Part shown: piece after piece, positions 2 to 27,633 of the stretch
Position numbering within the stretch: the first letter of the stretch is position 1
Layout: every line of letters begins with the position of its first letter
Origin: a virus
Lineage: Duplodnaviria; Heunggongvirae; Uroviricota; Caudoviricetes
IMG/VR virus record: IMGVR_UViG_2630968911_000005
DNA length: 27,633 nucleotides
Strand: one strand, 5' to 3'
Notes under the pieces: generated by a model
The model's database searches: none
The model's input: only the letters and a program-made list of their open reading frames with translations
Told to the model about the DNA's origin: nothing
Position numbers and translations under genes: made by a program

Positions 2-1297
2 TTAATTTTTCATTGCTTCGTTATGGGGCATGGTTGGGGCAAACTCGCTTAACTGTGTATTTAACAAAGCTACCTGTGCATTATTGTTTTCAGACATCCA
101 TTTTCCGTATACCTGAAATACCATTTGCGCATCTGCATGGCCCATCTGGTTTGCTATAAATGCCGGGTTAGCACCAGCTGTCAGCGACCAGCAGGCATAA
201 GTATGTCTCGACTGATATGATTTTCGATGGCGGAGTCCGGCACGTTTTATCGCTGCGTCCCACATCTGCCTTATTGAGTCAACGGTAAAATGGTCACCAT
301 AATTTTTTACTCTCGCTGACACTTCAGGTTGAAAAACAAAGGTGCATTTATGTTTTTCTGTTCTGCCATACTCTCTGAGGTGAACATCAATGATATGCTC
401 TTTGCTCAGTCTCGTTAATGTCATCTGACTCCGGAGAGCGTCGATTGCTGGCTTAATAAGATGAATGACCCGATTGGTTCCCGCCTGTGTTTTTGGTACC
501 GTGAAACGGTCTTTTGCTAAATTTCTCCTGATCATCATTGTTCCATTTTTCAGATCTATGTCCTCCCATCCAAGTGCACACAGCTCACCAGGGCGAACGC
601 CAGTATAAACAGAAACACACCATAAATTTTTGGCTTGCTGATTTCTGCACGCATCGATAAGACGGATGAATTCCTCCCGCGAAAGAGGATCCGGAATGGT
701 TCTTGATTCCTTTAATGGCGAGATCCCCTTAAACGGGTTATCTGCCAGGTAACCGTTATCAACACCAAACTGGAACACGGCGTTAAGATTTGTCATGTAA
801 TTATTTACAGTTACAGCCGATCTCCCTGGTTGTGTAACAATATAGTTACTTTTGGGGATCTGGTATCCAGTCAGTAGCTCTTTACGAACCTCCAGTAATT
901 TTTCTTTATTAATCGATGAGGCAAGATTTTTTTCACCGATTATGCTCAGGATATTTTTGATGACGGCACGGTATGTGTTGAGTGATGTTTTTGCGACTTC
1001 AGTTTCTTTCAGTGCCAGAAATTTTTCAGCCAGTTCTTTTATGGTTAAATCTTGTCGAGTCTCACCAAATTTTTCCAGATTGCGTGAGGAGGGAAACTGT
1101 TTTGCATAGTCGAAAACACCAGTTTTTATTGCGTAACAAACAGAGGCGCGTAGCTCACCTGCAACGCGCCTGTTTTTTGCTGTGTCAGGAACCCCCAGGT
1201 TTTCCCTGACTCTTACGCCTTTATAAACAAACCAGATACGTAATTTCCCTCCATGGTTTTCCACGCCTGTCGGATATTTCATTTCAACTTCTCTCAT
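2..1297 (-). CDS. Phage tyrosine integrase (site-specific recombinase), apparently intact; alternative start at 1282 (MKYPTG...)
   Basis: 431-aa ORF with stop at 2-4. C-terminal region has tyrosine-recombinase-like motifs (SRHTYA ... MGHA ... VYGKW). Lies next to an Xis-like gene at the prophage end. Confidence 0.9.
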   Translation of the reverse strand: MREVEMKYPTGVENHGGKLRIWFVYKGVRVRENLGVPDTAKNRRVAGELRASVCYAIKTGVFDYAKQFPSSRNLEKFGETRQDLTIKELAEKFLALKETEVAKTSLNTYRAVIKNILSIIGEKNLASSINKEKLLEVRKELLTGYQIPKSNYIVTQPGRSAVTVNNYMTNLNAVFQFGVDNGYLADNPFKGISPLKESRTIPDPLSREEFIRLIDACRNQQAKNLWCVSVYTGVRPGELCALGWEDIDLKNGTMMIRRNLAKDRFTVPKTQAGTNRVIHLIKPAIDALRSQMTLTRLSKEHIIDVHLREYGRTEKHKCTFVFQPEVSARVKNYGDHFTVDSIRQMWDAAIKRAGLRHRKSYQSRHTYACWSLTAGANPAFIANQMGHADAQMVFQVYGKWMSENNNAQVALLNTQLSEFAPTMPHNEAMKN

Positions 1298-1316: not shown

Positions 1317-1568
1317 TCAAGTAAGATGACGTCTTGGTCTTGCTGATGCCTGGCGCTCAATCCAGCGATCAATTTCTTCCAGGTTGTAAAAGCATGGACT
1401 GTTATCCCATGGCATACCGTCATGAGCGACATGCTTATATTCCCTTCCTTCCATAAACGATTTTTCCCGGGCCTTTTTTAACGTACCTTTTTTTATTCCT
1501 TTCAGCGCAATTAACTGCTCTTCGGATACCCATTTGCCGGGAGAGACAATCATGATTACTTCGCTCAT
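1317..1568 (-). CDS. Excisionase-like DNA-binding protein (Xis)
   Basis: 83-aa ORF directly upstream of int on the same strand. Contains GREYKHV, resembling the GREYLFH segment of lambda Xis as recalled. Confidence 0.65.
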   Translation of the reverse strand: MSEVIMIVSPGKWVSEEQLIALKGIKKGTLKKAREKSFMEGREYKHVAHDGMPWDNSPCFYNLEEIDRWIERQASARPRRHLT

Positions 1569-7973: not shown

Positions 7974-8005
7974 AACCAAGATCGATTCGGTTGAGTGCAT
8001 TGATC

Positions 8006-10002: not shown

Positions 10003-10025
10003 AGATTTCTCCTTTTAAAAAAGCA

Positions 10026-10510: not shown

Positions 10511-10523
10511 TTGTAATTACAAG
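10471..10523 (+). promoter_or_regulatory. relBE promoter (TTGCCC-N17-GATACT) with overlapping operator repeats (relO)
   Basis: CTTGTAATGACATTTGTAATTACAAG at 10498-10523 has repeated TTGTAAT hexads with dyad symmetry, just upstream of relB. Confidence 0.6.
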
Positions 10524-10534
10524 AGGTGTAAGAC

Positions 10535-10774
10535 ATGGGTAGCATTAACCTGCGTATTGACGATGAACTTAAAGCGCGTTCTTACGCCGCGCTTGAAAAA
10601 ATGGGTGTAACTCCTTCTGAAGCGCTTCGTCTCATGCTCGAGTATATCGCTGACAATGAACGCTTGCCGTTCAAACAGACACTCCTGAGTGATGAAGATG
10701 CTGAACTTGTGGAGATAGTGAAAGAACGGCTTCGTAATCCTAAGCCAGTACGTGTGACGCTGGATGAACTCTGA
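10535..10774 (+). CDS. relB: RelB antitoxin
   Basis: 79-aa product matches K-12 RelB as recalled (MGSINLRIDDELKARSYA...). Stop overlaps relE start (TGATG). Confidence 0.95.
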   Translation: MGSINLRIDDELKARSYAALEKMGVTPSEALRLMLEYIADNERLPFKQTLLSDEDAELVEIVKERLRNPKPVRVTLDEL

Positions 10775-11061
10775 TGGCGTATTTTCTGGATTTTGACGAG
10801 CGGGCACTAAAGGAATGGCGAAAGCTGGGCTCGACGGTACGTGAACAGTTGAAAAAGAAGCTGGTTGAAGTACTTGAGTCACCCCGGATTGAAGCAAACA
10901 AGCTCCGTGGTATGCCTGATTGTTACAAGATTAAGCTCCGGTCTTCAGGCTATCGCCTTGTATACCAGGTTATAGACGAGAAAGTTGTCGTTTTCGTGAT
11001 TTCTGTTGGGAAAAGAGAACGCTCGGAAGTATATAGCGAGGCGGTCAAACGCATTCTCTGA
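10774..11061 (+). CDS. relE: RelE mRNA interferase toxin
   Basis: 95-aa product matches K-12 RelE as recalled (MAYFLDFDERALKEW...). Confidence 0.95.
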   Translation: MAYFLDFDERALKEWRKLGSTVREQLKKKLVEVLESPRIEANKLRGMPDCYKIKLRSSGYRLVYQVIDEKVVVFVISVGKRERSEVYSEAVKRIL

Positions 11062-11132
11062 ACCAAAGCATGACATCTCTGTTTCGCACCGAAGGTGACA
11101 CTTCTGCTTTGCGTTGACAGGAGAAGCAGGCT

Positions 11133-11288
11133 ATGAAGCAGCAAAAGGCGATGTTAATCGCCCTGATCGTCATCTGTTTAACCGTCATAGTGACGGCACT
11201 GGTAACGAGGAAAGACCTCTGCGAGGTACGAATCCGAACCGGCCAGACGGAGGTCGCTGTCTTCACAGCTTACGAACCTGAGGAGTAA
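11133..11288 (+). CDS. hokD: Hok-family small membrane toxin HokD (RelF), 51 aa
   Basis: Manual translation MKQQKAMLIALIVICLTVIVTALVTRKDLCEVRIRTGQTEVAVFTAYEPEE. Below the ORF-track size cutoff. RBS GGAGAAG upstream. Confidence 0.85.
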   Translation: MKQQKAMLIALIVICLTVIVTALVTRKDLCEVRIRTGQTEVAVFTAYEPEE

Positions 11289-11356
11289 GAGACCCGGCGG
11301 GGGAGAAATCCCTCGCCACCTCTGATGTGGCAGGCATCCTCAACGCACCCGCACTT

Positions 11357-11390
11357 AACCCGCTTCGGCGGGTTTTTGTTTTTATTTTCA
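11357..11390 (+). terminator. Rho-independent terminator after the relBE-hokD operon
   Basis: Stem CCCGC/GCGGG with TTCG loop, followed by TTTTTGTTTTTATTTT. Confidence 0.6.
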
Positions 11391-11504
11391 ACGCGTTTGA
11401 AGTTCTGGACGGTGCCGGAATAGAATCAAAAATACTTAAGTAGCGCGCAGGGATAAGAGGGATGGTCCCTTAAAGGGGAGAGCTAATTATCCGGAAGGAT
11501 TCTG

Positions 11505-11756
11505 ATGATGAACATCGAAGAACTGCGTAAAATTTTTTGTGAAGATGGCCTCTATGCTGTGTGCGTTGAAAATGGAAATCTTGTTAGTCATTACCGCATT
11601 ATGTGTTTGCGAAAGAATGGGGCTGCGTTAATTAATTTTGTGGATGCTCGGGTCACGGACGGATTTATCTTGCGCGAAGGTGAGTTTGTCACTTCATTAC
11701 AGGCATTGAAAGAGATCGGAATAAAAGCTGGCTTTTCTGCTTTTTCAGGAGAATAA
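11505..11756 (+). CDS. rem: Rem protein (function unknown)
   Basis: 83-aa product matches K-12 Rem as recalled (MMNIEELRKIFCEDGLYAVC...). Confidence 0.85.
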   Translation: MMNIEELRKIFCEDGLYAVCVENGNLVSHYRIMCLRKNGAALINFVDARVTDGFILREGEFVTSLQALKEIGIKAGFSAFSGE

Positions 11757-11822
11757 ACTCATCTACAATCTTGCGCGGGGCTGAACTCCCGCTGAGTAAC
11801 ACCGTGCCACCGGAGAAAACCG

Positions 11823-12101
11823 ATGGCACGCAACGCAAAATATTACAATTCTGATAATTCGCCCGTTCTTGCCTGCACGCACGGGCGGTATTCTCACGCA
11901 TTCAAGTCTGAATGGTTCCAGCACCCTCCATGCACTGCAGAACAGGCCGAATGGCTGATTCATTCTTACCGCAGGCGCGGGTTCGAGGTTAAGAAAGCTC
12001 TCAGTCTCGACTATCGGCACTGGATAATCTCTGTCAGGCTGCCTTATTCCGAACGCCCACCACGTGCGTCCCGCACTTTCCAGCAACGGATCTGGAGGTA
12101 A
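11823..12101 (+). CDS. Hypothetical protein (92 aa) immediately upstream of ydfU
   Basis: ORF ends 2 nt before the ydfU start. Cys/His-containing sequence. No homolog recognised. Confidence 0.4.
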   Translation: MARNAKYYNSDNSPVLACTHGRYSHAFKSEWFQHPPCTAEQAEWLIHSYRRRGFEVKKALSLDYRHWIISVRLPYSERPPRASRTFQQRIWR

Positions 12102-12102
12102 C

Positions 12103-13152
12103 GTGCGGGTATTACTTAGACCTGTTCTGGTGCCTGAGCTTGGGCTGGTGGTCCTTAAGCCGGGCCGTGAATCCATACAGATATTTCATAATCCTCGAGT
12201 GCTGGTGGAACCGGAACCAAAAAGCATGCGTAATCTGCCATCCGGAGTCGTTCCTGCCGTTCGCCAGCCGCTGGCGGAAGACAAAACATTGCTGCCGTTT
12301 TTTAGTAACGAACGGGTGATTCGTGCTGCTGGCGGCGTTGGCGCATTGTCCGACTGGCTATTACGTCATGTTACATCCTGCCAGTGGCCTAATGGCGATT
12401 ACCATCACACTGAAACAGTCATTCACCGTTATGGTACCGGCGCAATGGTGTTGTGCTGGCACTGCGACAACCAACTGCGTGACCAGACATCGGAATCACT
12501 GGAGCTGCTTGCTCAACAAAATCTGACAGCATGGGTGATTGACGTCATCCGTCACGCAATAAGCGGTACGCAGGAGCGGGAATTATCTTTGGCTGAATTA
12601 TCCTGGTGGGCGGTCTGCAATCAGGTGGTGGATGCACTACCTGAGGCTGTATCGCGTCGTTCGCTGGGATTACCAGCGGAAAAAATCTGCTCGGTGTACC
12701 GCGAAAGCGACATCGTACCGGGAGAGCAGACCGCCACCAGCATATTGAAACAACGCACAAAAAATCTTGCACCGTTGCCTTACGCCCACCAGCAACAAAA
12801 ATCACCACAGGAAAAGACGGTGGTAAGCATCACCGTTGATCCAGAGTCTCCGGAATCTTTCATGAAGCTGCCTAAACGTCGCCGCTGGGTTAAGGAGAAA
12901 TACACACGTTGGGTTAAGACACAGCCGTGTGCTTGCTGCGGTATGCCAGCCGACGATCCGCATCATCTGATTGGTCACGGGCAGGGCGGAATGGGAACAA
13001 AAGCACATGATCTCTTTGTGTTGCCTTTGTGCAGAAAGCATCACAACGAGCTGCATACGGATACAGTGGCATTTGAAGATAAGTATGGCTCCCAACTGGA
13101 GCTGATATTTCGTTTTATCGATCGCGCGCTGGCAATTGGCGTACTGGCGTAA
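12103..13152 (+). CDS. ydfU: YdfU-like protein with C-terminal HNH/zinc-binding-like motif
   Basis: GTG start at 12103 with GGAGG 5 nt upstream gives 349 aa. C-terminus has CACCGMPADDPHHLIGHGQGG ... CRKHHNELH. Confidence 0.8.
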   Translation: MRVLLRPVLVPELGLVVLKPGRESIQIFHNPRVLVEPEPKSMRNLPSGVVPAVRQPLAEDKTLLPFFSNERVIRAAGGVGALSDWLLRHVTSCQWPNGDYHHTETVIHRYGTGAMVLCWHCDNQLRDQTSESLELLAQQNLTAWVIDVIRHAISGTQERELSLAELSWWAVCNQVVDALPEAVSRRSLGLPAEKICSVYRESDIVPGEQTATSILKQRTKNLAPLPYAHQQQKSPQEKTVVSITVDPESPESFMKLPKRRRWVKEKYTRWVKTQPCACCGMPADDPHHLIGHGQGGMGTKAHDLFVLPLCRKHHNELHTDTVAFEDKYGSQLELIFRFIDRALAIGVLA

Positions 13153-13165
13153 GTGGAGAACGAGC

Positions 13166-13918
13166 ATGAACCTTGAAGCCTTACCAAAATATTACTCCCC
13201 AAAATCTCCAAAATTGAGCGATGACGCTCCAGCGACAGGCACCGGTTGTTTAACAATTACGGATGTAATGGCAGCGCAGGGGATGGTGCAGTCGAAAGCA
13301 CCACTTGGGTTGGCCTTATTTCTGGCAAAAGTTGGTGTTCAGGACCCTCAGTTTGCGATTGAAGGCCTGCTAAATTACGCGATGGCACTGGATAACCCGA
13401 CATTGAACAAATTGAGTGAAGAAATCCGGTTACAGATTATTCCTTACCTCGTGAGTTTTGCCTTTGCTGATTACTCCAGGTCTGCGGCAAGTAAGGCTCG
13501 CTGTGAGCATTGTTCAGGTACGGGATTTTATAATGTATTGCGCGAAGTGGTGAAACACTACAGACGCGGGGAATCTGTAATCAAGGAAGAATGGGTGAAG
13601 GAACTATGTCAGCATTGCCATGGTAAGGGCGAAGCCAGCACAGCGTGCAGAGGGTGTAAGGGTAAAGGGATTGTTCTGGATGAAAAAAGAACCCGGTTTC
13701 ATGGCGTACCGGTATATAAGATTTGTGGGCGTTGTAATGGAAACCGGTTTAGTCGTTTACCGACCACGCTGGCACGACGTCATGTCCAGAAGCTGGTACC
13801 AGACCTGACCGATTATCAGTGGTATAAGGGGTATGCGGACGTCATTGGTAAACTGGTAACAAAGTGCTGGCAGGAAGAAGCATACGCGGAAGCGCAATTG
13901 AGGAAGGTGACGAGATAA
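13166..13918 (+). CDS. quuQ: Late-gene antiterminator Q (lambdoid Q family)
   Basis: 250 aa from ATG 13166 (GGAG upstream). Contains zinc-finger-like CEHCSGTG / CQHCHGKG / CRGCKGKG. Followed by a promoter plus terminator unit. Confidence 0.85.
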   Translation: MNLEALPKYYSPKSPKLSDDAPATGTGCLTITDVMAAQGMVQSKAPLGLALFLAKVGVQDPQFAIEGLLNYAMALDNPTLNKLSEEIRLQIIPYLVSFAFADYSRSAASKARCEHCSGTGFYNVLREVVKHYRRGESVIKEEWVKELCQHCHGKGEASTACRGCKGKGIVLDEKRTRFHGVPVYKICGRCNGNRFSRLPTTLARRHVQKLVPDLTDYQWYKGYADVIGKLVTKCWQEEAYAEAQLRKVTR

Positions 13919-13949
13919 ATGATTTTTGCTGAAGATGGCGACATGATGT

Positions 13950-13978
13950 TTGCATTTTTCAAAAAATATGGATAAAAT
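13950..13978 (+). promoter_or_regulatory. PR'-like late promoter (TTGCAT-N17-TAAAAT) downstream of Q
   Basis: Near-consensus sigma-70 hexamers with 17-bp spacer; terminator about 50 nt downstream, as in lambda PR'/qut/tR'. Confidence 0.5.
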
Positions 13979-14023
13979 TTTTTCAACGATGGGCTTTGTA
14001 TACCCGACGTTAAGAAAAAGTAG

Positions 14024-14054
14024 AAAACCCGCTGATGAGCGGGTTTTGTGCTTT
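14024..14054 (+). terminator. Rho-independent terminator (tR'-like) ending a short leader transcript
   Basis: AAAACCCGCT-GATG-AGCGGGTTTTGTGCTTT: 6-bp GC stem followed by a T-run. Confidence 0.6.
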
Positions 14055-14339
14055 AAATGGGGCAATGGTAATGTTGAATCTCATCCCGGGACTCATGTCT
14101 GTTAACTTATTATTTAGCTGGTGACTTGGTTATTTGCCTGATGTTTAAAATGTTTTCTTCCAGTACAATGTCCCTAAACACAATGAGTCTGCTTATTATA
14201 TTATTAGCAGAGCTATTACGGCCAAAGTACAGCATAAGCTTTTAAAGCCAATCAACCAGTCATCAAGACAGACGGGGTTATTCATAAAAACTCTCCATGT
14301 GTGATCCGATGGGGCCTGAAATTAAAGCTTTAATATAGC

Positions 14340-14552
14340 TCATGAAAGGTAAACATTGGCAGCTGAAGGGCCACGCAGACCATTTATCCGGCAAAATTCC
14401 ACGCGTAATCCGGTGGTAATTTCTTCTGCATCGCGGAGATTGAGCGCTGAAACATGAAGCTGGACATCGATACGACCATCGGATGGGGTGATAAGACCCT
14501 TGCCGCTTTTGCCGTCAAAGGTTTTGACAATTCCTGTCATTTTACGGGACAA
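14340..14552 (-). CDS. cspF: Cold-shock protein family member CspF
   Basis: 70-aa cold-shock-domain protein ([26 protein letters not shown]...). Confidence 0.9.
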
Positions 14553-14852
14553 AAAAATTCCTTAATACTGATAACTTGGCGCACTATACACACGTTCCTG
14601 AAGAAAGCTATAGTTTTTTGATGGGGTTGAAGATGGCTGGATGTCTAAAATAAACATTGCTTCATATGTTCAACTATGCGTTAATGATTGCGTCGGTTTG
14701 AAGAACAGACGATATACGAAGTAGTTTACTAAAGCAGTTCTCATTTCAGGTGTTATTCACTTATTCCTTCTTTGAGTCTCTCCAATTAAGTACGAAGTCG
14801 TTTCTGTTATGCAAACCATTTATGCCGAAAGGCTCAAGTTAAGGAATGTAGA

Positions 14853-15068
14853 ATGTCAAATAAAATGACTGGTTTAGTAAAATGGTTTAACGCTGATAAA
14901 GGTTTCGGCTTTATTTCTCCTGTTGATGGTAGTAAAGATGTGTTTGTGCATTTTTCTGCGATTCAGAATGATAATTATCGAACCTTATTTGAAGGTCAAA
15001 AGGTTACCTTCTCTATAGAGAGTGGTGCTAAAGGTCCTGCAGCAGCAAATGTCATCATTACTGATTAA
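14853..15068 (+). CDS. cspB: Cold-shock protein CspB
   Basis: 71-aa product with RNP motifs (KGFGFI, VFVHF). Long AT-rich 5' leader upstream. Confidence 0.92.
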
Positions 15069-15347
15069 AATTCATCGCTCGTCTGTATACGATAACGAAG
15101 AAGGCTGATGCCTGAGTAGAGATACGGACAGAGTAGTGAATATTGGATCTCTTTAATAAAAAGTAAGGAGGTCCAATACATGAAACAATGGCTAGCATAT
15201 TTGGCAAAATCTTAATCAGGAAAAGTATGCTAACCATTGTGGTGAAGTGCAGGTTTGCTGCATGAATAGTTTTACAGCAGAAGCTAACTGCTGGCATGGC
15301 AAAACAAAGTGCGTAAGTGGATGACTCCCACAAAAAGCACCACAATC

Positions 15348-15375
15348 TCAAACCCGCTCAGGCGGGTTTTTTATT
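15348..15375. terminator. Bidirectional rho-independent terminator between cspB and ynfU
   Basis: AAACCCGC-TCAG-GCGGGTTTTTTATT: GC stem flanked by an A-tract and a T-tract. Confidence 0.6.
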
Positions 15376-15431
15376 ATCTGCTTTAAATATATTATTAAAA
15401 TATAAAAAATACTTGTTACTAATAAAATCAA

Positions 15432-15602
15432 TCAGGCTACAGCTTTAAGATTTGTCTGGAATACTTTGTTGCAATGAGGGCAGATCAAAAGGGCACCTTT
15501 TTGTACTCTTGAAAAACTGTGTTCTGACTCTTGGGTGCAGTTTGGGCAGGAACATTTAACGAGATAATTACGGCGTGATTTTGAGTTTTTACGTTCTGAC
15601 AT
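15432..15602 (-). CDS. ynfU: Small zinc-ribbon protein YnfU-like (56 aa)
   Basis: MSERKNSKSRRNYLVKCSCPNCTQESEHSFSRVQKGALLICPHCNKVF... has two CxxC-type pairs. The ORF track begins 17 codons upstream. Confidence 0.65.
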   Translation of the reverse strand: MSERKNSKSRRNYLVKCSCPNCTQESEHSFSRVQKGALLICPHCNKVFQTNLKAVA

Positions 15603-15821
15603 AGGCTTTTCCTGTATAAATGGCCGTATACAGTACACTAAATATGAAAACATTTCTCGTATTATTATTTTATATATGACTTTCTTTCAAAATAATTACC
15701 CACATTTTTAATGTGTATGTTTTTTTAGCGCCGTTGAGAACAACGTGTGCTGTCAAAACTACCCCGTAGACTCCGATCTTTTCAAACATATTGCACCATC
15801 CGTGTACATCGGGGTGAGGAT

Positions 15822-16037
15822 ATGAAATCAATGGATAAGTTAACAACAGGTGTTGCCTATGGCACATCGGCGGGTAATGCTGGTTTCTGGGCATTGCAGT
15901 TACTCGATAAAGTAACTCCGTCACAGTGGGCTGCAATCGGTGTGCTGGGTAGCCTGGTTTTTGGCCTGCTGACGTATCTGACAAATCTTTATTTCAAGAT
16001 TAAAGAAGACAGGCGTAAGGCTGCGAGAGGAGAGTAA
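15822..16037 (+). CDS. essQ: Phage-21-type pinholin (S21-like), dual-start motif MKSMDK
   Basis: 71 aa, [26 protein letters not shown]...[15 protein letters not shown]; resembles S21 pinholin as recalled. RBS GGGGTGAGGA upstream. Confidence 0.88.
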
Positions 16038-16041
16038 TCCA

Positions 16042-16349
16042 ATGACTCAAGACTATGAACTGGTTGTGAAAGGAGTCCGTAATTTTGAGAATAAAGTTAC
16101 GGTAACTGTAGCCTTACAGGACAAAGAACGCTTTGACGGTGAAATTTTTGACCTGGATGTCGCCATGGACCGTGTTGAAGGAGCTGCGCTGGAGTTTTAT
16201 GAGGCAGCAGCCAGAAGGAGCGTCCGGCAAGTCTTCCTGGAAGTAGCAGAAAAATTGTCAGAAAAAGTTGAGTCTTATCTGCAGCATCAGTACTCCTTTA
16301 AGATTGAAAATCCTGCCAATAAGCACGAGCGTCCTCATCATAAATATCT

Positions 16350-16353
<4 letters not shown>
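16042..16353 (+). CDS. ydfR: YdfR-like protein of unknown function between holin and endolysin
   Basis: 103-aa ORF; its stop overlaps the endolysin start (ATGA). Confidence 0.8.
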
Positions 16354-17377
<1,024 letters not shown>

Positions 17378-17739
17378 GGTAATATTAAATCGGAACATTT
17401 ACATCGCGGAATGTAAAATTTAAATAAAAAGGACTCTTCCATGAGCCAAAATTCCTGAAATCTTAAGGGTAAGATAAAAGGTCTTAATCAGAATGACACG
17501 TTTTATTAATAAATAAAGCTATTCTTTCATTGCTGTGTTTTTCTTTACAAAAGTAATCCTTGCTATGGGTGGTTAATCATGCGTTAATGGTGTTCTGGTT
17601 TGTTACAAATTTATCTGAAGCAGTCATTGTTATAATTTTATTATTTGTACCTCTTGAGATTTCCTTGTTGGTTTTTCTCTCTGATATTTTTTTTCGGACC
17701 ATTCTGCCCAAGGGCTAATTTCTTCAAAAGGTAATAATT

Positions 17740-17952
17740 ATGTCTAACAAAATGACTGGTTTAGTGAAATGGTTTAACCCTGAAAAAGGTTTTGGTTTCA
17801 TCACGCCGAAAGATGGCAGCAAAGATGTGTTTGTCCATTTCTCAGCAATTCAGAGCAACGATTTCAAAACATTAACTGAGAATCAGGAAGTTGAATTTGG
17901 TATTGAGAACGGACCTAAAGGTCCTGCCGCTGTTCATGTAGTGGCGCTTTGA
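17740..17952 (+). CDS. cspI: Cold-shock protein CspI
   Basis: 70-aa cold-shock-domain protein ([34 protein letters not shown]...). RBS AAGGTAA. About 350-nt AT-rich leader. Confidence 0.92.
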
Positions 17953-18156
17953 GGTAGACAATATTACAAACCATATTCACTTTAGATGCCCGTGTTGTCA
18001 TGGTTCCCAGTATAGAACATCATCTTTTGATGTTTCTGACATGAATCCTTTCGGGGCAAAATGTATCTTTTGTAAATCAATGATGATTACATTTGATAAT
18101 ATTTCACAATACTTAAATGCCAGCCGTCTGTCGTTGGATTTAAAAAAGTGAAAATG

Positions 18157-18180
18157 AAGGCTCCTTCGGGAGCTTTTTTG
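18157..18180 (+). terminator. Rho-independent terminator with UUCG tetraloop downstream of cspI
   Basis: AAGGCTCC-TTCG-GGAGC followed by TTTTTT. Confidence 0.55.
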
Positions 18181-18223
18181 CTTGGTGTCTATTCGATGGA
18201 TACTCACATACTACGGTAACATC

Positions 18224-18454
18224 ATGAAAAAAATCATAGTTTTTTTTAACTCTGAACCAGCAGTGGTAGTGCCAGCGATGACTGGAGTTAACACCATCAT
18301 GCGTGAATATCCAAATGGCGAAAAAACACACCTTACTGTAATGGCCGCAGGGTTTCCATCTCTGACCGGAGATCATAAAGTCATTTATGTAGCCGCGGAT
18401 CGACATGTTACTTCAGAAGAAATTCTGGAAGCAGCAATAAGGCTCTTGAGTTGA
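18224..18454 (+). CDS. Hypothetical protein (start uncertain; the K-12 neighbour at this position, ynfN, is shorter)
   Basis: ORF MKKIIVFFNSEPAVVVPAMTGVNTIMREYPNGEKTHLTVMAAG.... Alternative ATG at 18299 has GGAG upstream. Confidence 0.45.
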   Translation: MKKIIVFFNSEPAVVVPAMTGVNTIMREYPNGEKTHLTVMAAGFPSLTGDHKVIYVAADRHVTSEEILEAAIRLLS

Positions 18455-18625
18455 TTTGATGCTATTGCATTGATAATTCAGGAAAATTCTCTTTGTCTGT
18501 TTGTGTAAAATTTAGACTATCGTATGTTGATTATTGCGATGTTTCATCTTATCTTTTACACGTTTGCACCATATAATCGACTTACTGTGTAACTGGAAAG
18601 TCATAACAGACTAAAAGAGGAAATG

Positions 18626-18799
18626 ATGAATATTGAAAACTTAAAAACAAAAGCAGAAGCAGATATTTCTGAATATATAACAAAAAAAATTATTGAACTT
18701 AAGAAAAAGACCGGGAAAGAAGTTACCAGTATTCAGTTTACCGCACGGGAAAAAATGACGGGTCTTGAAAGCTATGATGTCAAGATTAATTTAATCTGA
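18626..18799 (+). CDS. gnsB: GnsA/GnsB-family small protein
   Basis: Manual translation MNIENLKTKAEADISEYITKKIIELKKKTGKEVTSIQFTAREKMTGLESYDVKINLI. Below the ORF-track cutoff. RBS AAAGAGGAAA. Confidence 0.8.
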   Translation: MNIENLKTKAEADISEYITKKIIELKKKTGKEVTSIQFTAREKMTGLESYDVKINLI

Positions 18800-18950
18800 T
18801 GTATTCAATAATAAAATTTATCCATAAACCTCGTTTTTACGGGGTTTTGTTATATTTGAATGGTTCCGAATATCTAAATCACAATTGTTGATGGTTTTTA
18901 TTAAACCAATGCAGTCCGGCTCAGGAGTGAGAGAAGCCGGACGTTATGGT

Positions 18951-19376
18951 TTAGCGTGGTAAGATCTGTGTAGTTTTCTGGATGCTTTCAGTAAATAGTA
19001 ATGAATTATCAAAGGTATAGTAATATCTTTTTTGTTCGTGGATATTTGTAACCCACCGAAAAACTCCTGCTTTAGCAAGGTTTCTTCTGTATTCCTGAAA
19101 TGTGATCTCTCTGGATTTCAGCTTATTAGAGGTCGTTTCTATAAGATGCCTATCCTTTGAAAATTTGACAGACACAATGTTTTTTAGGCCCTTTAATAAC
19201 ACTGTATTATCATTTTTTAATACAATATGAACATTCTCTGTGGCTAAATAGTAAATGTAATGTGAGACATTGTGACGTTTTAGCTCAGAATAAAACCATT
19301 GATAGTTTAAATCGTTTCGAACTTTATCAAATATTTGTTTAAAAATGACTACCTGATCCATAGATAAACCGTCCAT
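18951..19376 (-). CDS. ydfO: YdfO-like protein; alternative start at 19361
   Basis: 141-aa ORF matching the position and length of K-12 ydfO. Confidence 0.75.
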
Positions 19377-19418
19377 GTGATATGAGGGGGCGTAGTCTGC
19401 ACGATTATCTAAATTGCT

Positions 19419-19652
19419 TCAATCTGGTCTGACCTGTTTTCTGAGCAATTCAGTAATGTCACTCTTTTCTTTGTTTGCTTCAGAAGAAACTCTTTTTTCT
19501 GAGCACAGTCTCCGGCGGCAGGCTTCAATGACCCAGGCTGAGAAATTCCCGGACCCTTTTTGCTCAAGAGCGATGTTAATTTGTTCAATCATTTGGTTAG
19601 GAAAGCGGATGTTGCGGGTTGTTGTTCTGCGGGTTCTGTTCTTCGTTGACAT
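19419..19652 (-). CDS. ynfO: YnfO-like small protein, possibly ribbon-helix-helix DNA-binding
   Basis: 77-aa basic protein; RNIRFPNQMIEQINIALEQKG resembles a beta-strand plus helix DNA-binding N-terminus. Confidence 0.7.
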   Translation of the reverse strand: MSTKNRTRRTTTRNIRFPNQMIEQINIALEQKGSGNFSAWVIEACRRRLCSEKRVSSEANKEKSDITELLRKQVRPD

Positions 19653-19851
19653 GAGGTTGCCCCGTATTCAGTGTCGCTGATTTGTATTGTCTGAAGTTGT
19701 TTTTACGTTAAGTTGATGCAGATCAATTAATACGATACCTGCGTCATAATTGATTATTTGACGTGGTTTGATGGCCTCCACGCACGTTGTGATATGTAGA
19801 TGATAATCATTATCACTTTACGGGTCCTTTCCGGTGATCCGACAGGTTACG

Positions 19852-19863
19852 GGGCGGCGACCT
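19852..19863 (+). other. cosN: lambda-type 12-nt cohesive-end sequence GGGCGGCGACCT
   Basis: CCGACAGGTTACG-GGGCGGCGACCT-CGCGGGTTTTCGCTATTTATGAAAATTTTCC matches the lambda cos junction as recalled. Confidence 0.85.
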
Positions 19864-19903
19864 CGCGGGTTTTCGCTATTTATGAAAATTTTCCGGTTTA
19901 AGG

Positions 19904-20011
19904 CGTTTCCGTTCTTCTTCGTCGTAACTTAATGTTTTTATTTAAAATACCCCCTAAAAAGAAAGGAAACGACAGGTGCTGAAAACGAACTTTTGGGCCT
20001 CTGTCGTTTCC
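19904..20011 (+). promoter_or_regulatory. cosB: terminase Nu1 binding elements R3, R2, R1 with intervening IHF-site-like AT tract
   Basis: CGTTTCC at 19904-19910, GGAAACG at 19965-19971 (inverted), CGTTTCC at 20005-20011, in lambda-like arrangement upstream of Nu1. Confidence 0.75.
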
Positions 20012-20040
20012 TTTCTCTGTTTTTGGCCGTGGAATGAACA

Positions 20041-20562
20041 ATGGAAGTCAACAAAAAGCAGCTGGCTGACATTTTCGGTGCGAGTATCCGTACCATTCAG
20101 AACTGGCAGGAACAGGGAATGCCCGTTCTGCGAGGCGGTGGCAAGGGTAATGAGGTGCTTTATGACTCTGCCGCCGTTATAAGATGGTATGCCGAAAGGG
20201 ATGCTGAAATTGAGAACGAAAAGCTGCGCCGGGAAGTTGAAGAACTGCGGCGGGCCAGCGAGACAGATCTCCAGCCAGGGACTATTGAGTACGAACGCCA
20301 TCGACTTACGCGTGCGCAGGCCGACGCACAGGAGCTGAAAAATGCCAGAGACTCCGCTGAAGTGGTGGAAACCGCATTCTGTACTTTCGTGCTGTCGCGG
20401 ATCGCAGGTGAAATTGCCAGTATTCTCGACGGGATCCCCCTGTCGGTGCAGCGGCGTTTTCCGGAACTGGAAAACCGACATGTTGATTTCCTGAAACGGG
20501 ATATCATCAAAGCCATGAACAAAGCAGCCGCGCTGGATGAACTGATACAGCATGGACGTTGA
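20041..20562 (+). CDS. nohQ: Terminase small subunit Nu1 homolog; C-terminal about 11 residues replaced at a deletion junction
   Basis: [42 protein letters not shown]... matches lambda Nu1 through ...AAALDELI, then ends QHGR. Confidence 0.9.
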
Positions 20563-23500
20563 GTACGGTCAGTACAGCGTTATTCTGTTGGTGGAGGGAT
20601 TCCCGCCGTCACATGCCGGGACCATCACCGTGTATGAAGATTCTCAACCCGGTACGCTGAATGATTTTCTCGGTGCCATGACGGAGGATGATGCCCGTCC
20701 GGAGGCACTGCGTCGTTTTGAACTGATGGTGGAAGAGGTGGCGCGTAACGCGTCCGTGGTGGCACAGAACACGGCAGCCGCAAAGAAGTCAGCCAGTGAT
20801 GCCAGCACATCTGCCAGTGAGGCGGCAACCCGTGCGACTGATGCTGCAGATTCAGCACGTGCAGCCAGCACGTCAGCCGGACAGGCCGCGTCGTCGGCTC
20901 AGTCAGCGTCTTCCAGCGCAGGAACGGCATCAACAAAGGCCACTGAAGCCTCAAAAAGTGCTGCCGCTGCAGAGTCCTCAAAAAGCGCGGCGGCTACCAG
21001 TGCCGGTGCGGCGAAAACGTCAGAAACGAATGCGGCAGCGTCAGAACAATCAGCCGCCACTTCTGCATCCACCGCGACCACGAAAGCGTCAGAAGCTGCC
21101 ACCTCAGCCAGGGATGCGTCGGCTTCAAAAGAGGCGGCAAAATCATCAGAAACGAGCGCAGCCTCGAGCGCCAGTCGTGCAGCCTCCTCGGCAACAGCGG
21201 CAGGAACTTCCGCGAAGGCGGCAAAAACGTCCGAGACGAACGCAAAGTCTTCTGAGACGGCAGCGGGACAGAGTGCCTCCGCAGCAGCAGACTCAAAAAC
21301 AGCGGCTGCCTCATCTGCCAGCGCCGCGTCAACAAATGCCGGGCAGGCCTCAGCCAGTGCCACCGCTGCCGGAAAGTCGGCAGAAAGCGCCGCATCATCC
21401 GCTTCAACAGCCACAACGAAGGCTGGCGAAGCCACTGAACAGGCCACGGTAGCAGCGAGGTCAGCTTCCGCAGCGAAGACATCCGAAACGAACGCGAAAG
21501 CGTCGGAAACCAGCGCAGAATCCTCAAAAACGGCTGCCGCATCGTCAGCCAGTTCGGCGGCGTCATCGGCATCATCGGCGTCTGCTTCAAAAGATGAGGC
21601 GACCAGACAGGCGTCAGCAGCGAAGGGCAGCGCCACGACGGCATCCACGAAGGCGACAGAGGCAGCTGGCAGTGCGACGGCGGCAGCTCAGAGCAAAAGT
21701 ACGGCGGAATCCGCGGCAACGCGCGCCGAGACAGCAGCAAAACGGGCAGAGGATATTGCATCCGCCGTGGCGCTTGAGGATGCGAGCACGACGAAAAAGG
21801 GGATAGTACAGCTCAGCAGTGCGACCAACAGTACGTCTGAAACGCTGGCGGCAACGCCAAAGGCAGTAAAATCAGCCTATGACAATGCAGAGAAACGTCT
21901 GCAGAAAGACCAGAACGGCACTGATATACCCGATAAGGGACGCTTCCTGAACAACATTAACGCGGTCAGTAAAATAGACTTTGCTGATAAGCGTGGTATG
22001 CGTTATGTGCGGGTTAACGCTCCTGCAGGTGCAACATCTGGAAAATATTACCCTGTTGTTGTTATGCGTTCTGCTGGCTCAGTAAGCGAACTGGCATCAA
22101 GGGTCATTATCACCACGGCAACGCGAACCGCAGGCGATCCGATGAATAACTGCGAGTTTAACGGATTTGTTATGCCTGGTGGCTGGACTGACAGGGGGCG
22201 TTATGCTTATGGAATGTTCTGGCAATATCAAAACAATGAACGAGCCATCCACTCAATAATGATGAGTAATAAGGGCGATGATTTGCGCTCTGTGTTCTAT
22301 GTTGATGGCGCTGCTTTCCCTGTTTTTGCGTTTATCGAAGATGGCCTGTCAATATCCGCACCTGGTGCTGATCTCGTTGTTAATGATACGACCTATAAGT
22401 TTGGGGCAACAAATCCAGCGACTGAATGTATCGCGGCGGACGTTATCCTTGATTTTAAGAGTGGGCGTGGTTTTTATGAGTCTCATTCGTTAATCGTTAA
22501 CGATAATTTGTCGTGCAAAAAACTTTTTGCCACAGACGAAATTGTAGCGCGTGGTGGTAATCAGATTCGAATGATAGGTGGGGAGTATGGTGCATTATGG
22601 CGTAATGATGGCGCTAAAACTTACCTGCTGCTTACCAATCAAGGTGATGTTTATGGTGGCTGGAATACATTAAGACCGTTTGCTATTGATAACGCAACCG
22701 GCGAACTGGTTATTGGAACCAAACTGTCCGCAAGTCTGAACGGTAATGCATTAACAGCAACAAAGCTGCAAACGCCAAGACGGGTTTCTGGTGTTGAGTT
22801 TGATGGTTCCAAAGATATTACTTTAACCGCCGCGCATGTGGCTGCTTTTGCCAGAAGGGCAACGGATACATATGCCGATGCGGATGGTGGCGTTCCCTGG
22901 AATGCCGAATCAGGTGCTTACAATGTCACCCGCTCTGGCGACAGCTATATTCTGGTTAACTTCTATACCGGAGTCGGAAGTTGCCGGACCTTGCAGATGA
23001 AGGCGCATTACAGAAATGGTGGTCTGTTCTACCGTTCTTCAAGAGACGGTTATGGTTTTGAGGATGACTGGGCAGAAGTTTATACCTCGAAAAATCTTCC
23101 ACCAGAAAGCTACCCAGTCGGCGCACCAATCCCGTGGCCATCAGATACCGTTCCGTCTGGCTATGCCCTGATGCAGGGGCAGACTTTTGACAAATCTGCA
23201 TACCCGAAACTTGCAGTGGCTTATCCGTCAGGCGTTATTCCTGATATGCGTGGCTGGACGATTAAGGGCAAGCCCGCCAGTGGTCGTGCCGTATTGTCTC
23301 AGGAACAGGACGGCATTAAATCGCACACCCACAGCGCCAGCGCATCCAGTACGGATTTGGGGACGAAAACCACATCATCGTTTGATTACGGCACTAAATC
23401 CACGAATAACACTGGTGCACATACCCATAGTGTTAGCGGTACGGCTGCTTCAGCCGGTGCACATACCCATTCGATGACATTTGTTTCAGGTGGTTCCAGT

Positions 23501-23752
23501 GGTGCTCCGGGAAGTGGATCACCTGATTATTCTAAATACAGTGTTAACACTTCTTCTGCAGGCGCTCATACGCACTCTGTATCGGGTACTGCTGCAAGCG
23601 CAGGTGCACACGCACATACTGTCGGTATTGGTGCTCATACGCACTCCGTTGCGATTGGCTCACATGGACACACCATCACCGTTAACGCTGCTGGTAACGC
23701 GGAAAACACCGTCAAAAACATCGCATTTAACTATATTGTGAGGCTTGCATAA
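20552..23752 (+). CDS. stfQ: Side tail fibre protein (lambda Stf family), N-terminally truncated by deletion
   Basis: Begins at lambda Stf internal [12 protein letters not shown]. Long Ala/Ser/Thr repeats (AAKTSETNA...). C-terminal GAHTHS repeats and ...[14 protein letters not shown]. Confidence 0.9.
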
Positions 23753-24327
23753 TGGCATTCAGAATGAGTGAACAACCACGGACCATAACAATTTATAATC
23801 TGCTGGCCGGAACTAATGAATTTATTGGTGAAGGTGATGCATATATTCCGCCTCATACAGGTCTGCCAGCAAACAGTACCGATATTGCACCGCCAGATAT
23901 TCCGGCTGGCTTCGTGGCTGTTTTCAACAGTGATGAGTCATCGTGGCATCTCGTTGAAGATCATCGGGGTAAAACGGTTTATGACGTGGCTTCCGGCGAC
24001 GCGTTATTTATTTCTGAACTCGGTCCGTTACCGAAAAATGTTACCTGGTTATCGCCGGAAGGGGAGTTTCAGAAGTGGAACGGCACAGCCTGGGTGAAGG
24101 ATACGGAAGCAGAAAAACTGTTCCGGATCCGGGAGGCGGAAGAAACAAAAAACAACCTGATGCAGGTAGCCAGTGAGCATATTGCGCCGCTTCAGGATGC
24201 TGCAGATCTGGAAATTGCAACGGAGGAAGAAATCTCGTTGCTGGAAGCATGGAAAAAGTATCGGGTATTGCTGAACCGTGTTGATACGTCAACTGCACAG
24301 GATATTGAATGGCCAGCACTGCCGTAG
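23752..24327 (+). CDS. tfaQ: Tail fibre assembly protein (Tfa)
   Basis: 191-aa ORF overlapping the stf stop (TAATG). N-terminus [26 protein letters not shown]. Confidence 0.85.
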
Positions 24328-24424: not shown

Positions 24425-25015
24425 TTATATGTCAGGTGTCTGAAGTTTTGCTTTGGCTCTTAAAATGGTTTGCCGCGAGGTTTTGAATTCCCGGGCAATG
24501 GCACTTATACTTACACCTGACTTAATTCGTTCGAATACCACCTGTTTCTGTTCTTCATTTAACACAGGTGGTCGACCAAAACGTTTCCCTGCGCCGCGGG
24601 CTCTTACTATCCCGGAATGAGTGCGTTCAAGTAAAAGGTCTCGTTCAAATTCAGCAACTGCTGAAATTACTTGCATCATCATTTTTCCTGTTGGACTGGT
24701 CAAGTCAATGCCCCCCAATGCTAAGCAATGTACTCTGATACCTGTTTCGGTCAGTTGTTCCACTGTTTTCCTGATATCCATTGCATTACAACCAAGGCGA
24801 TCCAGTTTTGTCACAATCAATTGATCACCACATTTCAGGCGAGCAAGCAACCGGTTAAAACTAGGACGCTCACTGGTTGCTGCTGAGCCGCTAATGTGTT
24901 CTTCGATTATTTGCTGAGGTTTGATTTTAAAACCTGCACTTTCGATTTCCCGGCGTTGATTTTCGGTGGTCTGATCCAGCGTTGATATCCGACAGTAAGC
25001 AAAAATTCGAGACAT
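24425..25015 (-). CDS. pinQ: Serine recombinase DNA invertase (Pin/Gin/Hin family)
   Basis: [20 protein letters not shown]... with the catalytic serine in the RIST motif. C-terminal HTH. Confidence 0.92.
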
Positions 25016-25565: not shown

Positions 25566-26349
25566 GAAGATATTCCTTAAAATATTATTGATTTTCATTG
25601 CGATATTGTATGTCTGATTCAGGATATGTTGACTTATACATCGGTTTTGTCTGGGTTATTGGATATGCCAATCCCTAATTTTATTAGGGCATGACTAAAA
25701 ATGCTGAATATGATAAGGAGAGAAGTGATTATCAGTATGCTGTTCATATAGCCTCGAATTAGTAATGTGTTATATATGATATAGTTGACAATTTTTATCT
25801 TGGGTGTTCTTAAAGTTCGTAGATAAACATTGTCGTTTCAGGTATACAGGAATGCTAACAGGTGGCAGCAAAAATCAGGCGGTTATGGCGCAAGCTGAAG
25901 CGGCAACTGCAAACTATCTTATGCAGAGACTCTACACGGATTGGGTTTAAAAGTATACATAGATAACAGTTTTTATCTGAAAAAGAAAAATATCAAGGTG
26001 ATATAGCCTATATGCCTTTGATGCGGAGGAATGAATGTGATGGGAGTGATGTATCTGAATAGTTGAAAAACCGCAGACACGCCTTATGCAAGAACGTGCT
26101 GCGGTTGGCTGGTAAATTTTTCGATAGTGTGAGTATTGAATGATTTCCAGCCGTTCTTGATTTTACGCATAAATCCATGAAAAAACTACTTATCTGTTGG
26201 GGAGTTTTTTTGGGGCATATATGGGACAGAAATAGGCCCCAGATAGACACTGAGATCGAACTTAGGATGCTTTTTAAAAAATGCAACTATCTGAAAAAAC
26301 CTAGAAAACGCCAAGGAAACCACAGGATGGGAAAAAACACCTGTGAATT

Positions 26350-27633
26350 ATGGATTTCCAGTTATATTCGCTCGGCGCAGCGTTAGTGTTTCATGAAATA
26401 TTTTTTCCTGAATCATCAACGGCAATGGCGTTAATTCTGGCAATGGGAACCTACGGTGCAGGTTATGTGGCGCGTATTGTCGGAGCATTTATTTTCGGCA
26501 AAATGGGCGACAGAATAGGGCGTAAAAAAGTGCTCTTTTTTACCATCACCATGATGGGGATCTGTACCACCTTAATTGGTGTGTTACCGACCTATGCACA
26601 GATTGGTGTTTTTGCACCCATCTTGCTGGTGACGTTGCGTATTATTCAGGGGTTGGGTGCAGGTGCGGAAATTTCCGGTGCCGGTACGATGCTGGCGGAA
26701 TATGCGCCAAAAGGTAAGCGCGGAATTATCTCCTCATTTGTGGCTATGGGAACTAACTGCGGAACCTTGAGCGCAACGGCAATCTGGGCCTTTATGTTCT
26801 TCATTCTCAGTAAAGAGGAACTGCTGGCGTGGGGATGGCGTATACCGTTCCTGGCGAGCGTTGTCGTGATGGTCTTTGCTATCTGGTTGCGTATGAATCT
26901 GAAAGAAAGCCCGGTCTTTGAGAAGGTTAACGACAGTAACCAACCGACAGCAAAACCTGCACCTGCTGGTAGCATGTTCCAGAGCAAATCCTTCTGGCTG
27001 GCAACAGGGCTGCGTTTTGGTCAGGCGGGTAACTCCGGGTTAATTCAGACTTTCCTTGCAGGCTATTTAGTGCAGACGTTATTGTTTAACAAAGCAATTC
27101 CAACAGATGCATTGATGATCAGTTCGATTCTCGGCTTTATGACCATTCCGTTCCTTGGTTGGTTATCCGATAAAATTGGTCGCCGGATCCCGTATATTAT
27201 TATGAATACCTCCGCGATTGTGCTGGCATGGCCAATGCTTTCTATCATTGTAGATAAAAGCTATGCCCCGAGCACCATTATGGTTGCACTGATTGTGATT
27301 CATAACTGTGCGGTGCTGGGATTATTTGCTCTGGAAAACATTACCATGGCAGAAATGTTCGGCTGTAAAAACCGCTTTACCCGGATGGCTATTTCTAAAG
27401 AAATTGGTGGTCTTATCGCTTCCGGTTTTGGTCCTATCCTGGCGGGTATTTTCTGCACCATGACGGAATCCTGGTATCCGATCGCCATTATGATCATGGC
27501 ATATTCAGTGATTGGTTTAATCTCTGCGCTGAAAATGCCAGAGGTGAAAGACCGTGATTTAAGTGCGCTGGAAGACGCTGCGGAAGATCAACCGCGTGTT
27601 GTAAGAGCTGCGCAACCTTCCAGAAGTCTGTAA
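26350..27633 (+). CDS. ydfJ: MFS transporter, metabolite:H+ symporter family, 5'-truncated at the prophage junction
   Basis: GKMGDRIGRKK loop motif lies at residue about 50; by comparison with ProP as recalled the frame starts mid-TM1. In-frame TGA two codons upstream of the first ATG. Confidence 0.85.
   Translation: MDFQLYSLGAALVFHEIFFPESSTAMALILAMGTYGAGYVARIVGAFIFGKMGDRIGRKKVLFFTITMMGICTTLIGVLPTYAQIGVFAPILLVTLRIIQGLGAGAEISGAGTMLAEYAPKGKRGIISSFVAMGTNCGTLSATAIWAFMFFILSKEELLAWGWRIPFLASVVVMVFAIWLRMNLKESPVFEKVNDSNQPTAKPAPAGSMFQSKSFWLATGLRFGQAGNSGLIQTFLAGYLVQTLLFNKAIPTDALMISSILGFMTIPFLGWLSDKIGRRIPYIIMNTSAIVLAWPMLSIIVDKSYAPSTIMVALIVIHNCAVLGLFALENITMAEMFGCKNRFTRMAISKEIGGLIASGFGPILAGIFCTMTESWYPIAIMIMAYSVIGLISALKMPEVKDRDLSALEDAAEDQPRVVRAAQPSRSL

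Follow-up and report, generated by a model that had tools for sequence, protein, structure and literature searches.

The window analysed here, a 27,633-nucleotide stretch of tailed-phage DNA (IMG/VR record IMGVR_UViG_2630968911_000005), is the Qin cryptic prophage of Escherichia coli, and this work concerns its late-operon end, where a lambda-type cos site is followed by a truncated gene for Nu1, the small terminase subunit (TerS), and by the remains of stf, the side tail fibre gene. The assignment to Qin rests on the rspB/ydfJ insertion site (rspB flanks the element on one side and ydfJ on the other), on the Qin genes found throughout (dicB, ydfD, relBE, hokD, ydfT, cspB/F/I, essD-rrrQ-rzpQ, ynfO, nohA, tfaQ, pinQ and ydfK), on near-identity to positions 2220358-2247992 of the chromosome of E. 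coli G4/9 (99.975%, with five substitutions and two 1-base indels), and on the annotation of strain K-12, in which the counterparts are named nohA, stfQ, tfaQ and pinQ within 'cryptic prophage Qin'.

We aligned the cos region and Nu1 to phage lambda (NC_001416), whose bp 1 corresponds to window position 19852. The segment to the left of cosN (19507..19851, plus strand) matches lambda 48158-48502; the homology starts at 19507, a single substitution close to that end interrupts these 345 bp, and from 19800 to 19851 there are zero mismatches. The left flank thus matches lambda except for one far-left base, and cosQ, which we take to be GGGTCCT at lambda 48473-48479 (window 19822-19828), is therefore identical wherever exactly it is located. 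cosQ is required for the termination of packaging (PMC4856287, PMC4669245). The 12-nt cohesive-end sequence of cosN, GGGCGGCGACCT (19852..19863, plus strand), has the same flanking bases as in lambda, and lambda bp 1-72 are all identical in the window, without an indel and with the spacing between cosN and R3 kept. This identical stretch takes in I2 (19869..19901, plus strand), which spans lambda bp 18-50 with bp 30-35 being critical (PMC4856287), and R3, AGGCGTTTCCGTTCTT (19901..19916, plus strand; lambda bp 50-65), the coordinates of which, like the spacing requirement between I2/cosN and R3, have been described (PMC9026076, PMC4856287). The interval between R3 and R2, with the IHF site I1 (19917..19959, plus strand), carries three substitutions, at lambda 73, 102 and 105. 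The inverted R element R2, AGAAAGGAAACGACAG (19960..19975, minus strand; lambda 109-124), and R1, CTGTCGTTTCCTTTCT (20001..20016, plus strand; lambda 151-166), are the same as in lambda. The differences over lambda bp 1-190 are 73 A>G, 102 T>C, 105 G>A, 134 G>A, 138/139 GG>A (one base lost), 145 T>G and 176 T>G, and all of them sit in spacers, leaving cosN, I2, R3, R2 and R1 untouched. The earlier note on this DNA had described cosQ, cosN and cosB as reading almost base for base like lambda and had proposed this alignment as the check; the site came through it with no mutation in cosN or the R sites.

To place these differences, the site was set in an alignment of nine, namely the window, six deposited lambda-like phage genomes, K-12 Qin and the Qin of strain 1303, and cosN does not vary among them. 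All of the cosB variants of the window except 105 G>A are carried by PhiR26_1, PhiR49_1, 2H10 or Kati, and only two positions separate its cosB from that of PhiR26_1. Of the nine, only the window and strain 1303 Qin have the 105 G>A change; within the IHF site I1 region (bp 66-108), the 73 and 102 changes are shared with deposited phages and 105 G>A is not. IHF is dispensable for lambda (PMC4856287). Judged from this comparison, the cos of the window is very probably functional for a terminase of lambda specificity. A chance likeness to cos is ruled out by 97% identity to lambda over 246 bp and 100% over the 52 bases left of cosN, and mutated essential positions are absent from cosN, I2 and the R sites; it is K-12 Qin that has a change in R3. 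That change, bp 54 G>A (locus L004), adjoins bp 55-63, which are contacted by TerS, and the cos of K-12 Qin may on this count be weaker than that of the window. The left flank also holds, unchanged at 19708..19731 (no strand assigned), a site bound by FNR in K-12, TTAAGTTGATGCAGATCAATTAAT, some 120-145 bp from cosN and within DNA that is also identical in lambda; FNR binding upstream of nohA/nohB in K-12 was found by chromatin immunoprecipitation on arrays (ChIP-chip) and by electrophoretic mobility shift assay (PMC1802558). Sites of this kind are widespread: among 5,426 complete E. coli genomes, 3,983 carry a lambda-type cos (at least 80% of the 246-bp query), at a median of two places per genome, and this cos nearly always adjoins a gene annotated nohA or nohD.

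Directly to the right of cos lies a truncated Nu1 gene of the nohA type (20041..20562, plus strand; 173 amino acids), which consists of lambda Nu1 residues 1-169 followed by QHGR. As had been noted before, it is near-complete: 165 of the 169 residues are shared with the 181-residue lambda protein (the changes being K48R, Q71R, A75T and L132I), and the Pfam model Phage_Nu1 is covered over positions 1-164 of 164 (E=6e-101). Residues 1-47, the winged-helix DNA-binding part, are identical to lambda and the oligomerisation region is present; the C-terminal 12 residues (PGLLSEYIEQSG) are lost, with QHGR instead, leaving the region that binds the large terminase subunit (TerL) incomplete. When lambda 1-25000 was compared with the window by blastn, the only matches were to lambda 1-698, 19794-20803, 21245-21523, 21824-22538 and 24162-24256. 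Lambda 699-19793, with A, W, B, C, Nu3, D, E, FI, FII, Z, U, V, G, T, H, M, L, K, I, J and lom, finds no match in the window, and the PGAP annotation of the near-identical G4/9 element holds no head or tail-shaft gene, so that the absence of TerL and of all head and tail-shaft genes, also part of the earlier description, is borne out. The first ~144 nt of stf are missing as well. What remains of stf (20552..23752, plus strand) matches the Pfam model phage_tail_N over positions 51-134 only and is annotated in G4/9 as 'missing N-terminus'. Its open reading frame starts at an internal ATG (MDVEYGQY...) and overlaps the stop of the truncated Nu1 gene by 11 nt (20552-20562); from this arrangement, a tail fibre without its first ~50 residues could be translatable by coupling to the truncated Nu1.

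The junction between the two genes is a TAC microhomology at 20546..20548 (no strand assigned), which joins lambda bp 698, in Nu1 codon 170, to nucleotide ~148 of stf. Strain 1303 Qin and the window agree at every base along 10 kb (100% identity) apart from one 2,833-bp gap, the ends of which are ...GAACTGATAC/CGGGG in Nu1 and ...GGGCGTTAC/AGCATGG in stf (here and below, a slash marks the break or join), and the overlap of the blastn segments also shows the TAC junction. Because this single difference falls at TAC, we consider that an illegitimate deletion in a 1303-like state gave rise to the window. Of the 5,426 genomes, only G4/9 matched in one piece a 301-bp query with the junction at its midpoint. 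The Nu1-stf layout is thus a recent deletion private to one lineage, in a prophage that decays differently in each lineage. Strain 1303 Qin still has a full Nu1, 411 codons of A, the 3' end of E, FI, FII, a stub of Z and a full stf; ET490 Qin has Nu1, 488 codons of A, a fragment of lom and stf; and in 19SZHZ713Rt Qin only 44 codons of Nu1 remain, fused to the 3' half of J. More generally, Nu1 plus at least 1.2 kb of A is retained in 3,367 of the 5,426 genomes. A lineage-private junction among such differing states agrees with the size range of Qin, 11-97 kb across 189 strains (PMC6379469).

The closest annotated relative, K-12 Qin (cos-nohA-stfQ-tfaQ-pinQ, b1545-b1548), agrees with the window in its rspB/ydfJ site and in the order of its genes, and its cos and Nu1 homologue are nearly identical. 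Its deletion is another one, however: lambda bp 720 is joined to the last third of stf, giving a nohA of 189 and an stfQ of 320 amino acids, whereas in the window bp 698 is joined to codon ~50. K-12 Qin further differs in its R3 (G54>A), in its disrupted intQ and in carrying dicA, dicC and dicF, while the window has the lambda R3 and an intact int and xis, and the K-12 element is smaller (20.5 kb against 26.4 kb). The sister remnant DLP12 likewise has a lambda-type cos followed by a Nu1 homologue, nohD (nohB), with the morphogenetic genes deleted; it sits at the argU locus instead, and in K-12 it keeps a full-length Nu1 and 282 bp of A.

Taken together, we consider it likely that the region is the late-operon end of Qin caught at one stage of deletional decay, a remnant and not a mobile element packaged by a helper. 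An ancestral lambda-like prophage in ydfJ would have shed its morphogenetic genes stepwise, the last step in this lineage being the 2,833-bp illegitimate deletion at TAC that joined Nu1 codon 170 to stf codon ~50; cos and Nu1(1-169) would then survive as the left neighbours of the deletion and not as a design for mobilisation.

The position at which Nu1 is cut recurs. Dozens of independent prophage deletions share it: we found at least 19 DNA junctions that differ from one another, and at least 18 different protein fusion tails, all of which begin right after ...GGATGAACTGATA (Nu1 codon 169), at window 20544-20549, or lambda bp 694-699 (loci L014-L048, L059 and L130). The deletions begin at lambda bp 697-699 (...CTGATA/CCGGGG) and span 0.05-21 kb rightwards, on the side of gene A. 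Different prophages and strains have joins that start at almost one nucleotide, as in the window (...GATAC/AGCATGG), PEC41 (...GATA/TGGCAG), F9792 (...GATA/TCGGTGCC), DETEC-P169 (...GATA/AAGCGCAGG), BL21 DLP12 (...GATACC/CGAACACGG) and FG31-1 (...GATACCGGGGTT/CCCGCC); the K-12 Qin junction reads ...GAATATA/ACCGCG. At the protein level, we located the end of identity to lambda Nu1 in the best 120 of 459 Nu1 relatives. That end is residue 169 in 33 cluster representatives, which among them carry at least 18 different tails (portal, E, FI, a Big_2 domain, Lom, Tfa, integrase, out-of-frame A and several without a Pfam match), residues 170-173 in 7, 5, 3 and 2, and residues 139-141 in 9, while no residue from 142 to 168 exceeds 2.

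A scan of IMG/VR for exact patterns, in which a non-native base comes directly after the 21-mer that ends at lambda 697, returned 15 loci, of which 11 are junctions (8 kinds) and four are a C>T single-nucleotide polymorphism; the same scan gave 0, 0, 0 and 0 loci at four control positions and 1 at bp 610. The mirror scan of IMG/VR, for a foreign base followed by CCGGGGTTGCTG..., returned 0 loci, and a metagenome scan yielded further junction kinds. In a sample of 135 IMG/VR loci with the 20-mer, the intact class being capped at 120, lambda homology ends at bp 697-708 in 13 loci and, over the following 2,290 bp, in only 14. Every partner that can be placed on lambda has TA directly left of the join, and the partners have little else in common; some partner sites recur in junctions without Nu1. 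Each fusion variant has 1-9 members, where intact Nu1 has hundreds to thousands, and from this rarity we take it that the variants form at a high rate rather than being selected over the long term.

It is tempting to see the Nu1-169 truncation as the product of a sharp deletion hotspot in E. coli lambdoid prophages that acts in one direction only, a pattern which would imply either a site-directed break or replication block, or selection for a TerS without its C-terminal tail; we advance this tentatively and rate it at somewhat less than an even chance. Our leading guess is a site-directed nick or replication block at ...GATA/CCGGGG, and one candidate source of the break is a terminase nick at the cosN-like TAC/GGGG motif; selection for a tail-less TerS is also possible. 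Slippage driven by a hairpin was considered and set aside, the DNA fold at the site having z=-0.02 with no inverted repeat. A by-eye comparison of ...GAACTGATA/CCGGGGTTG and its partners with Pin/Hin-type crossover sites, RusA (which cuts 5' of CC), CCNGG restriction cleavage, Chi, the IS91 target, the IHF site and the lambda Int core found none that fitted all junctions. We found no description of this putative hotspot in the papers that were searched.

Other recurrent sites accompany it. Within Nu1, GGCGTTTTCCGG (window 20453-20464; lambda ~603-614, codons 138-142) resembles the R3 core GGCGTTTCCG plus one T, and it coincides with the smaller breakpoint cluster in which nine fusion clusters end at residues 139-141. 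This smaller cluster lies near the score cut-off of the list and may partly be an edge effect. On the right-hand side, the end point /ACCGCG(C/T)TGACAG in the 3' third of stf occurs with three left ends, bp 720 (K-12, L004), 697 (L025) and 880 (L131), and sites in A (bp 2179) and in Z (bp 8059-8067) recur in unrelated junctions. Given these recurring right end points, right-hand hotspots exist too.

What would such a remnant do when a phage grows in the cell? The earlier note had seen in this layout an element that a helper lambdoid phage could package in trans. The first half of that proposal holds up, since with a lambda-type cos that looks intact, its R sites and an almost full-length Nu1 the locus should be recognised and nicked by a helper terminase of lambda specificity; the second half, that the element is packaged and moves, is not supported, given its lack of replication genes, its length of 54% of lambda, its single cos and its private junction. 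The phage-21-type helper that had also been suggested is unfit, the R sites being those of lambda and the discrimination between lambda and 21 cosB exceeding 1000-fold (PMC4669245). With cosN and cosB both of the lambda type, the helper therefore needs lambda (or N15-like) specificity. On the G4/9 chromosome only a single place matches cos, Nu1 or stf, and over 54.8 kb rightwards from cosN there is no second cos, the best 12-mer matches having two mismatches. Terminases of cos phages cannot finish without a second cos, and tails fail to join where protruding DNA stays uncut (PMC6687093); without termination, packaging continues, with a lethal effect on the particle (PMC4856287). The annotation of the element in the G4/9 record shows no replication genes, so that concatemers cannot form. 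The excised monomer would measure 26.4 kb (54% of lambda) and a dimer 52.8 kb (109%). Lambda packages roughly 75-105% of its genome length, and both forms therefore fall beyond that range.

A helper of lambda specificity could probably cut the cos of the window, as far as its sequence allows a prediction, and start a one-way packaging that it would fail to finish. We infer the steps from lambda biology. Without a helper the element would be inert, since it encodes no TerL and a terminator-like hairpin precedes cos. If a phage of lambda cosB specificity grew in the cell, its terminase would bind R3, R2 and R1 and nick the chromosomal cosN, and translocation would run rightwards through stf, tfaQ and pinQ, then ydfJ', ydfI and onwards past marRAB, the lsr operon and hipBA. 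With no cosQ-cosN downstream there would be no terminal cut, and the products would be dead ends or doc-type particles with one cohesive end. The chromosome would be expected to break, and recombination with the phage to be stimulated so that the Qin cos and late genes are rescued into phage genomes; transfer of DNA to the right of cos would be rare at most, and Qin would not be expected to move as a unit. For stimulated recombination there is experimental support in the sister remnant DLP12, where 10 of 19 junctions in lambda-DLP12 recombinants lay beside cos and the DLP12 nu1 works in lambda (PMC3945230).

The opposite view, that the window Qin is a cos-bearing mobilisable element, akin to a satellite or a cosmid and moved as a unit by a lambdoid helper that packages it in trans, strikes us as very improbable. 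It can appeal to the intact cos of lambda specificity, to the intact integrase and excisionase reading frames, and to the precedent of the cos-type islands described below. Known systems with which it may be compared share part of its features. In doc particles, reportedly formed from an unexcised lambda prophage, packaging also starts at a single chromosomal cos and runs one way into host DNA with no terminal cos, but there the prophage is said to supply terminase and heads and to amplify the region, whereas the window Qin, known from sequence alone, would need a helper for all of this. Cosmids have only cos and depend wholly on a helper for packaging, as the element would; they are packaged from cos-cos intervals of ~38-51 kb, whereas this locus has one cos. 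Cos-type phage-inducible chromosomal islands (PICIs; EcCICFT073 / PICI-A) are integrated, carry int and a lambda-like cosQ/cosN by a TerS-like gene, and lack TerL and capsid genes, and with only cosQ/cosN they hijack lambda-like helpers (PMC9026076, PMC6739421). The window element departs from them in that they bring a replication module of their own, use an Rpp protein to retarget the TerS of the helper, lack the R sites of the lambda cosB and measure ~10-15 kb; their excision is induced by the helper (PMC9026076, PMC6092414). Neither a primase/replication module nor an Rpp-like redirecting protein nor AlpA is annotated in the window element; Nu1 with a lambda cosB stands by cos in place of an Rpp-type gene, and the lysis cassette and tail-fibre genes, foreign to PICIs, are kept. 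Replication module, Rpp, size and gene content rule out membership of the satellites or PICIs, and the mobilisable reading is further burdened by a monomer and a dimer outside the lambda packaging range, by the single cos and by a junction private to one lineage, the deletion end points of sister strains being unrelated and one of them destroying Nu1.

A domesticated function, in which cos and Nu1(1-169) are kept or repeatedly made for the benefit of the host, is improbable too, though less so. One possibility is that a TerS that binds cosB and lacks the TerL-contacting tail co-assembles with phage Nu1 and hampers lambda-type packaging; another is that the chromosomal cos acts as a decoy. In favour of such a function are the fusion tails themselves, at least 18 different ones starting after residue 169 and 6, 4, 3 and 2 more at residues 170-173, the fact that the deletions always spare the cos/Nu1 side (11 loci against 0), and the intact DNA-binding and oligomerisation parts (residues 1-47 as in lambda). 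The TerL-binding determinant is, moreover, the C-terminal ~40 residues, and the Rpp of PICIs is TerS-like without that tail (PMC9026076). However, the fusion variants are mostly rare (1-9 members, against 300-2,868 in clusters of the intact 181-residue Nu1), which suggests frequent mutation rather than selection; most genomes (3,367/5,426) have Nu1 with at least 1.2 kb of A; only 12 residues are gone, and TerS minus 30 residues still weakly binds TerL; one Qin variant has no Nu1 past codon 44; and promoter fusions of the FNR site were weak (PMC1802558). Some points do weigh against deletional decay as the whole account. The left ends of many independent deletions meet at Nu1 codon 169, and the retention of cos and Nu1 may not be purely passive. 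The intact int and xis permit excision, and the circle could recombine with a helper and travel as a cointegrate. The 105 G>A change lies 4 bp from R2, at the edge of the IHF region, in a cos whose cutting is a prediction, and the doc-type particle biology that we draw on goes back to the older literature.

The remainder of the element fits the Qin assignment. The att core TTATGGATTTC forms a direct repeat, with the right copy at 26348..26358 (no strand assigned), at the truncated ydfJ, and the left copy ~45 bp before window position 1; it fits the K-12 Qin boundaries and gives an att-to-att span of 26,396 bp (54% of the length of lambda). The integrase gene is an intact reading frame (2..1297, minus strand; Pfam Arm-DNA-bind_2 and Phage_integrase; a tyrosine recombinase in G4/9), followed by that of the excisionase (1317..1568, minus strand; Pfam DUF1233 putative excisionase, E=1.6e-31; also annotated in G4/9). 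Both frames are intact in the window allele, whereas K-12 intQ is a pseudogene split by IS2, and this copy of Qin might be able to excise, to judge from these frames. In the PGAP annotation of G4/9 the order is rspB, int, xis, exonuclease, ydfD, dicB, IS fragments, flxA, relBE and hokD on the left, rem, ydfU, ydfT (Q), cspF/B, essD, ydfR, rrrQ, rzpQ, cspI, gnsB, ydfO and ynfO in the middle, and 'DNA-packaging protein', truncated tail fibre, tfaQ, pinQ, ydfK and truncated ydfJ on the right. The tail fibre assembly gene tfaQ (23752..24327, plus strand) and the serine invertase gene pinQ (24425..25015, minus strand) are recognised by Pfam and by the G4/9 annotation.

Relative to G4/9 there are single-base deletions at ~2349 and ~8052. 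The one at ~2349 breaks an 823-residue exonuclease gene into open reading frames 1641-2333 and 2231-4147 and could be a true frameshift or a homopolymer sequencing error. The immunity region (~4200-9300) is rearranged: ydfD and dicB are kept and ydfA-C are absent, dicA and dicC are not annotated in the G4/9 record of the element, no Rfam match to the DicF RNA occurs in the window, and an ISNCY transposase fragment and an IS3 copy occupy the place of dicA/dicC/ydfA-C. Rfam matches were obtained for a sok-type antitoxin RNA (6415-6586), distant from the annotated hokD, for the IS009 RNA (24095-24293) within the 3' end of tfaQ, and for cspA-type thermoregulator leaders (14692-15084 and 17594-17979) upstream of cspB and cspI. 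The terminator-like hairpin (18826-18847, plus strand) lies between the lysis genes/gnsB and cos, and Q antitermination would be needed for late transcripts to pass it and get to the truncated Nu1.

The presence of cos with nohA in Qin and DLP12 is already known, being annotated in K-12 and shared by roughly three in four of the complete E. coli genomes, and as first stated the finding is of little consequence; the breakpoint hotspot is the part that is possibly worth following up. A functional-looking lambda-type cos in the chromosome is nearly ubiquitous in E. coli, and each infection by a phage of lambda specificity probably breaks the chromosome at defined places, which matters for recombination between phages and prophages. 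Polarised transfer, at a low level, could also follow for the DNA on the right of cos, which here would include marRAB, the lsr operon and hipBA. Finally, the codon-169 breakpoint is a clean case of non-random prophage decay and, if it is site-directed, such a hotspot would explain why many remnants keep exactly cos and a tail-less TerS.

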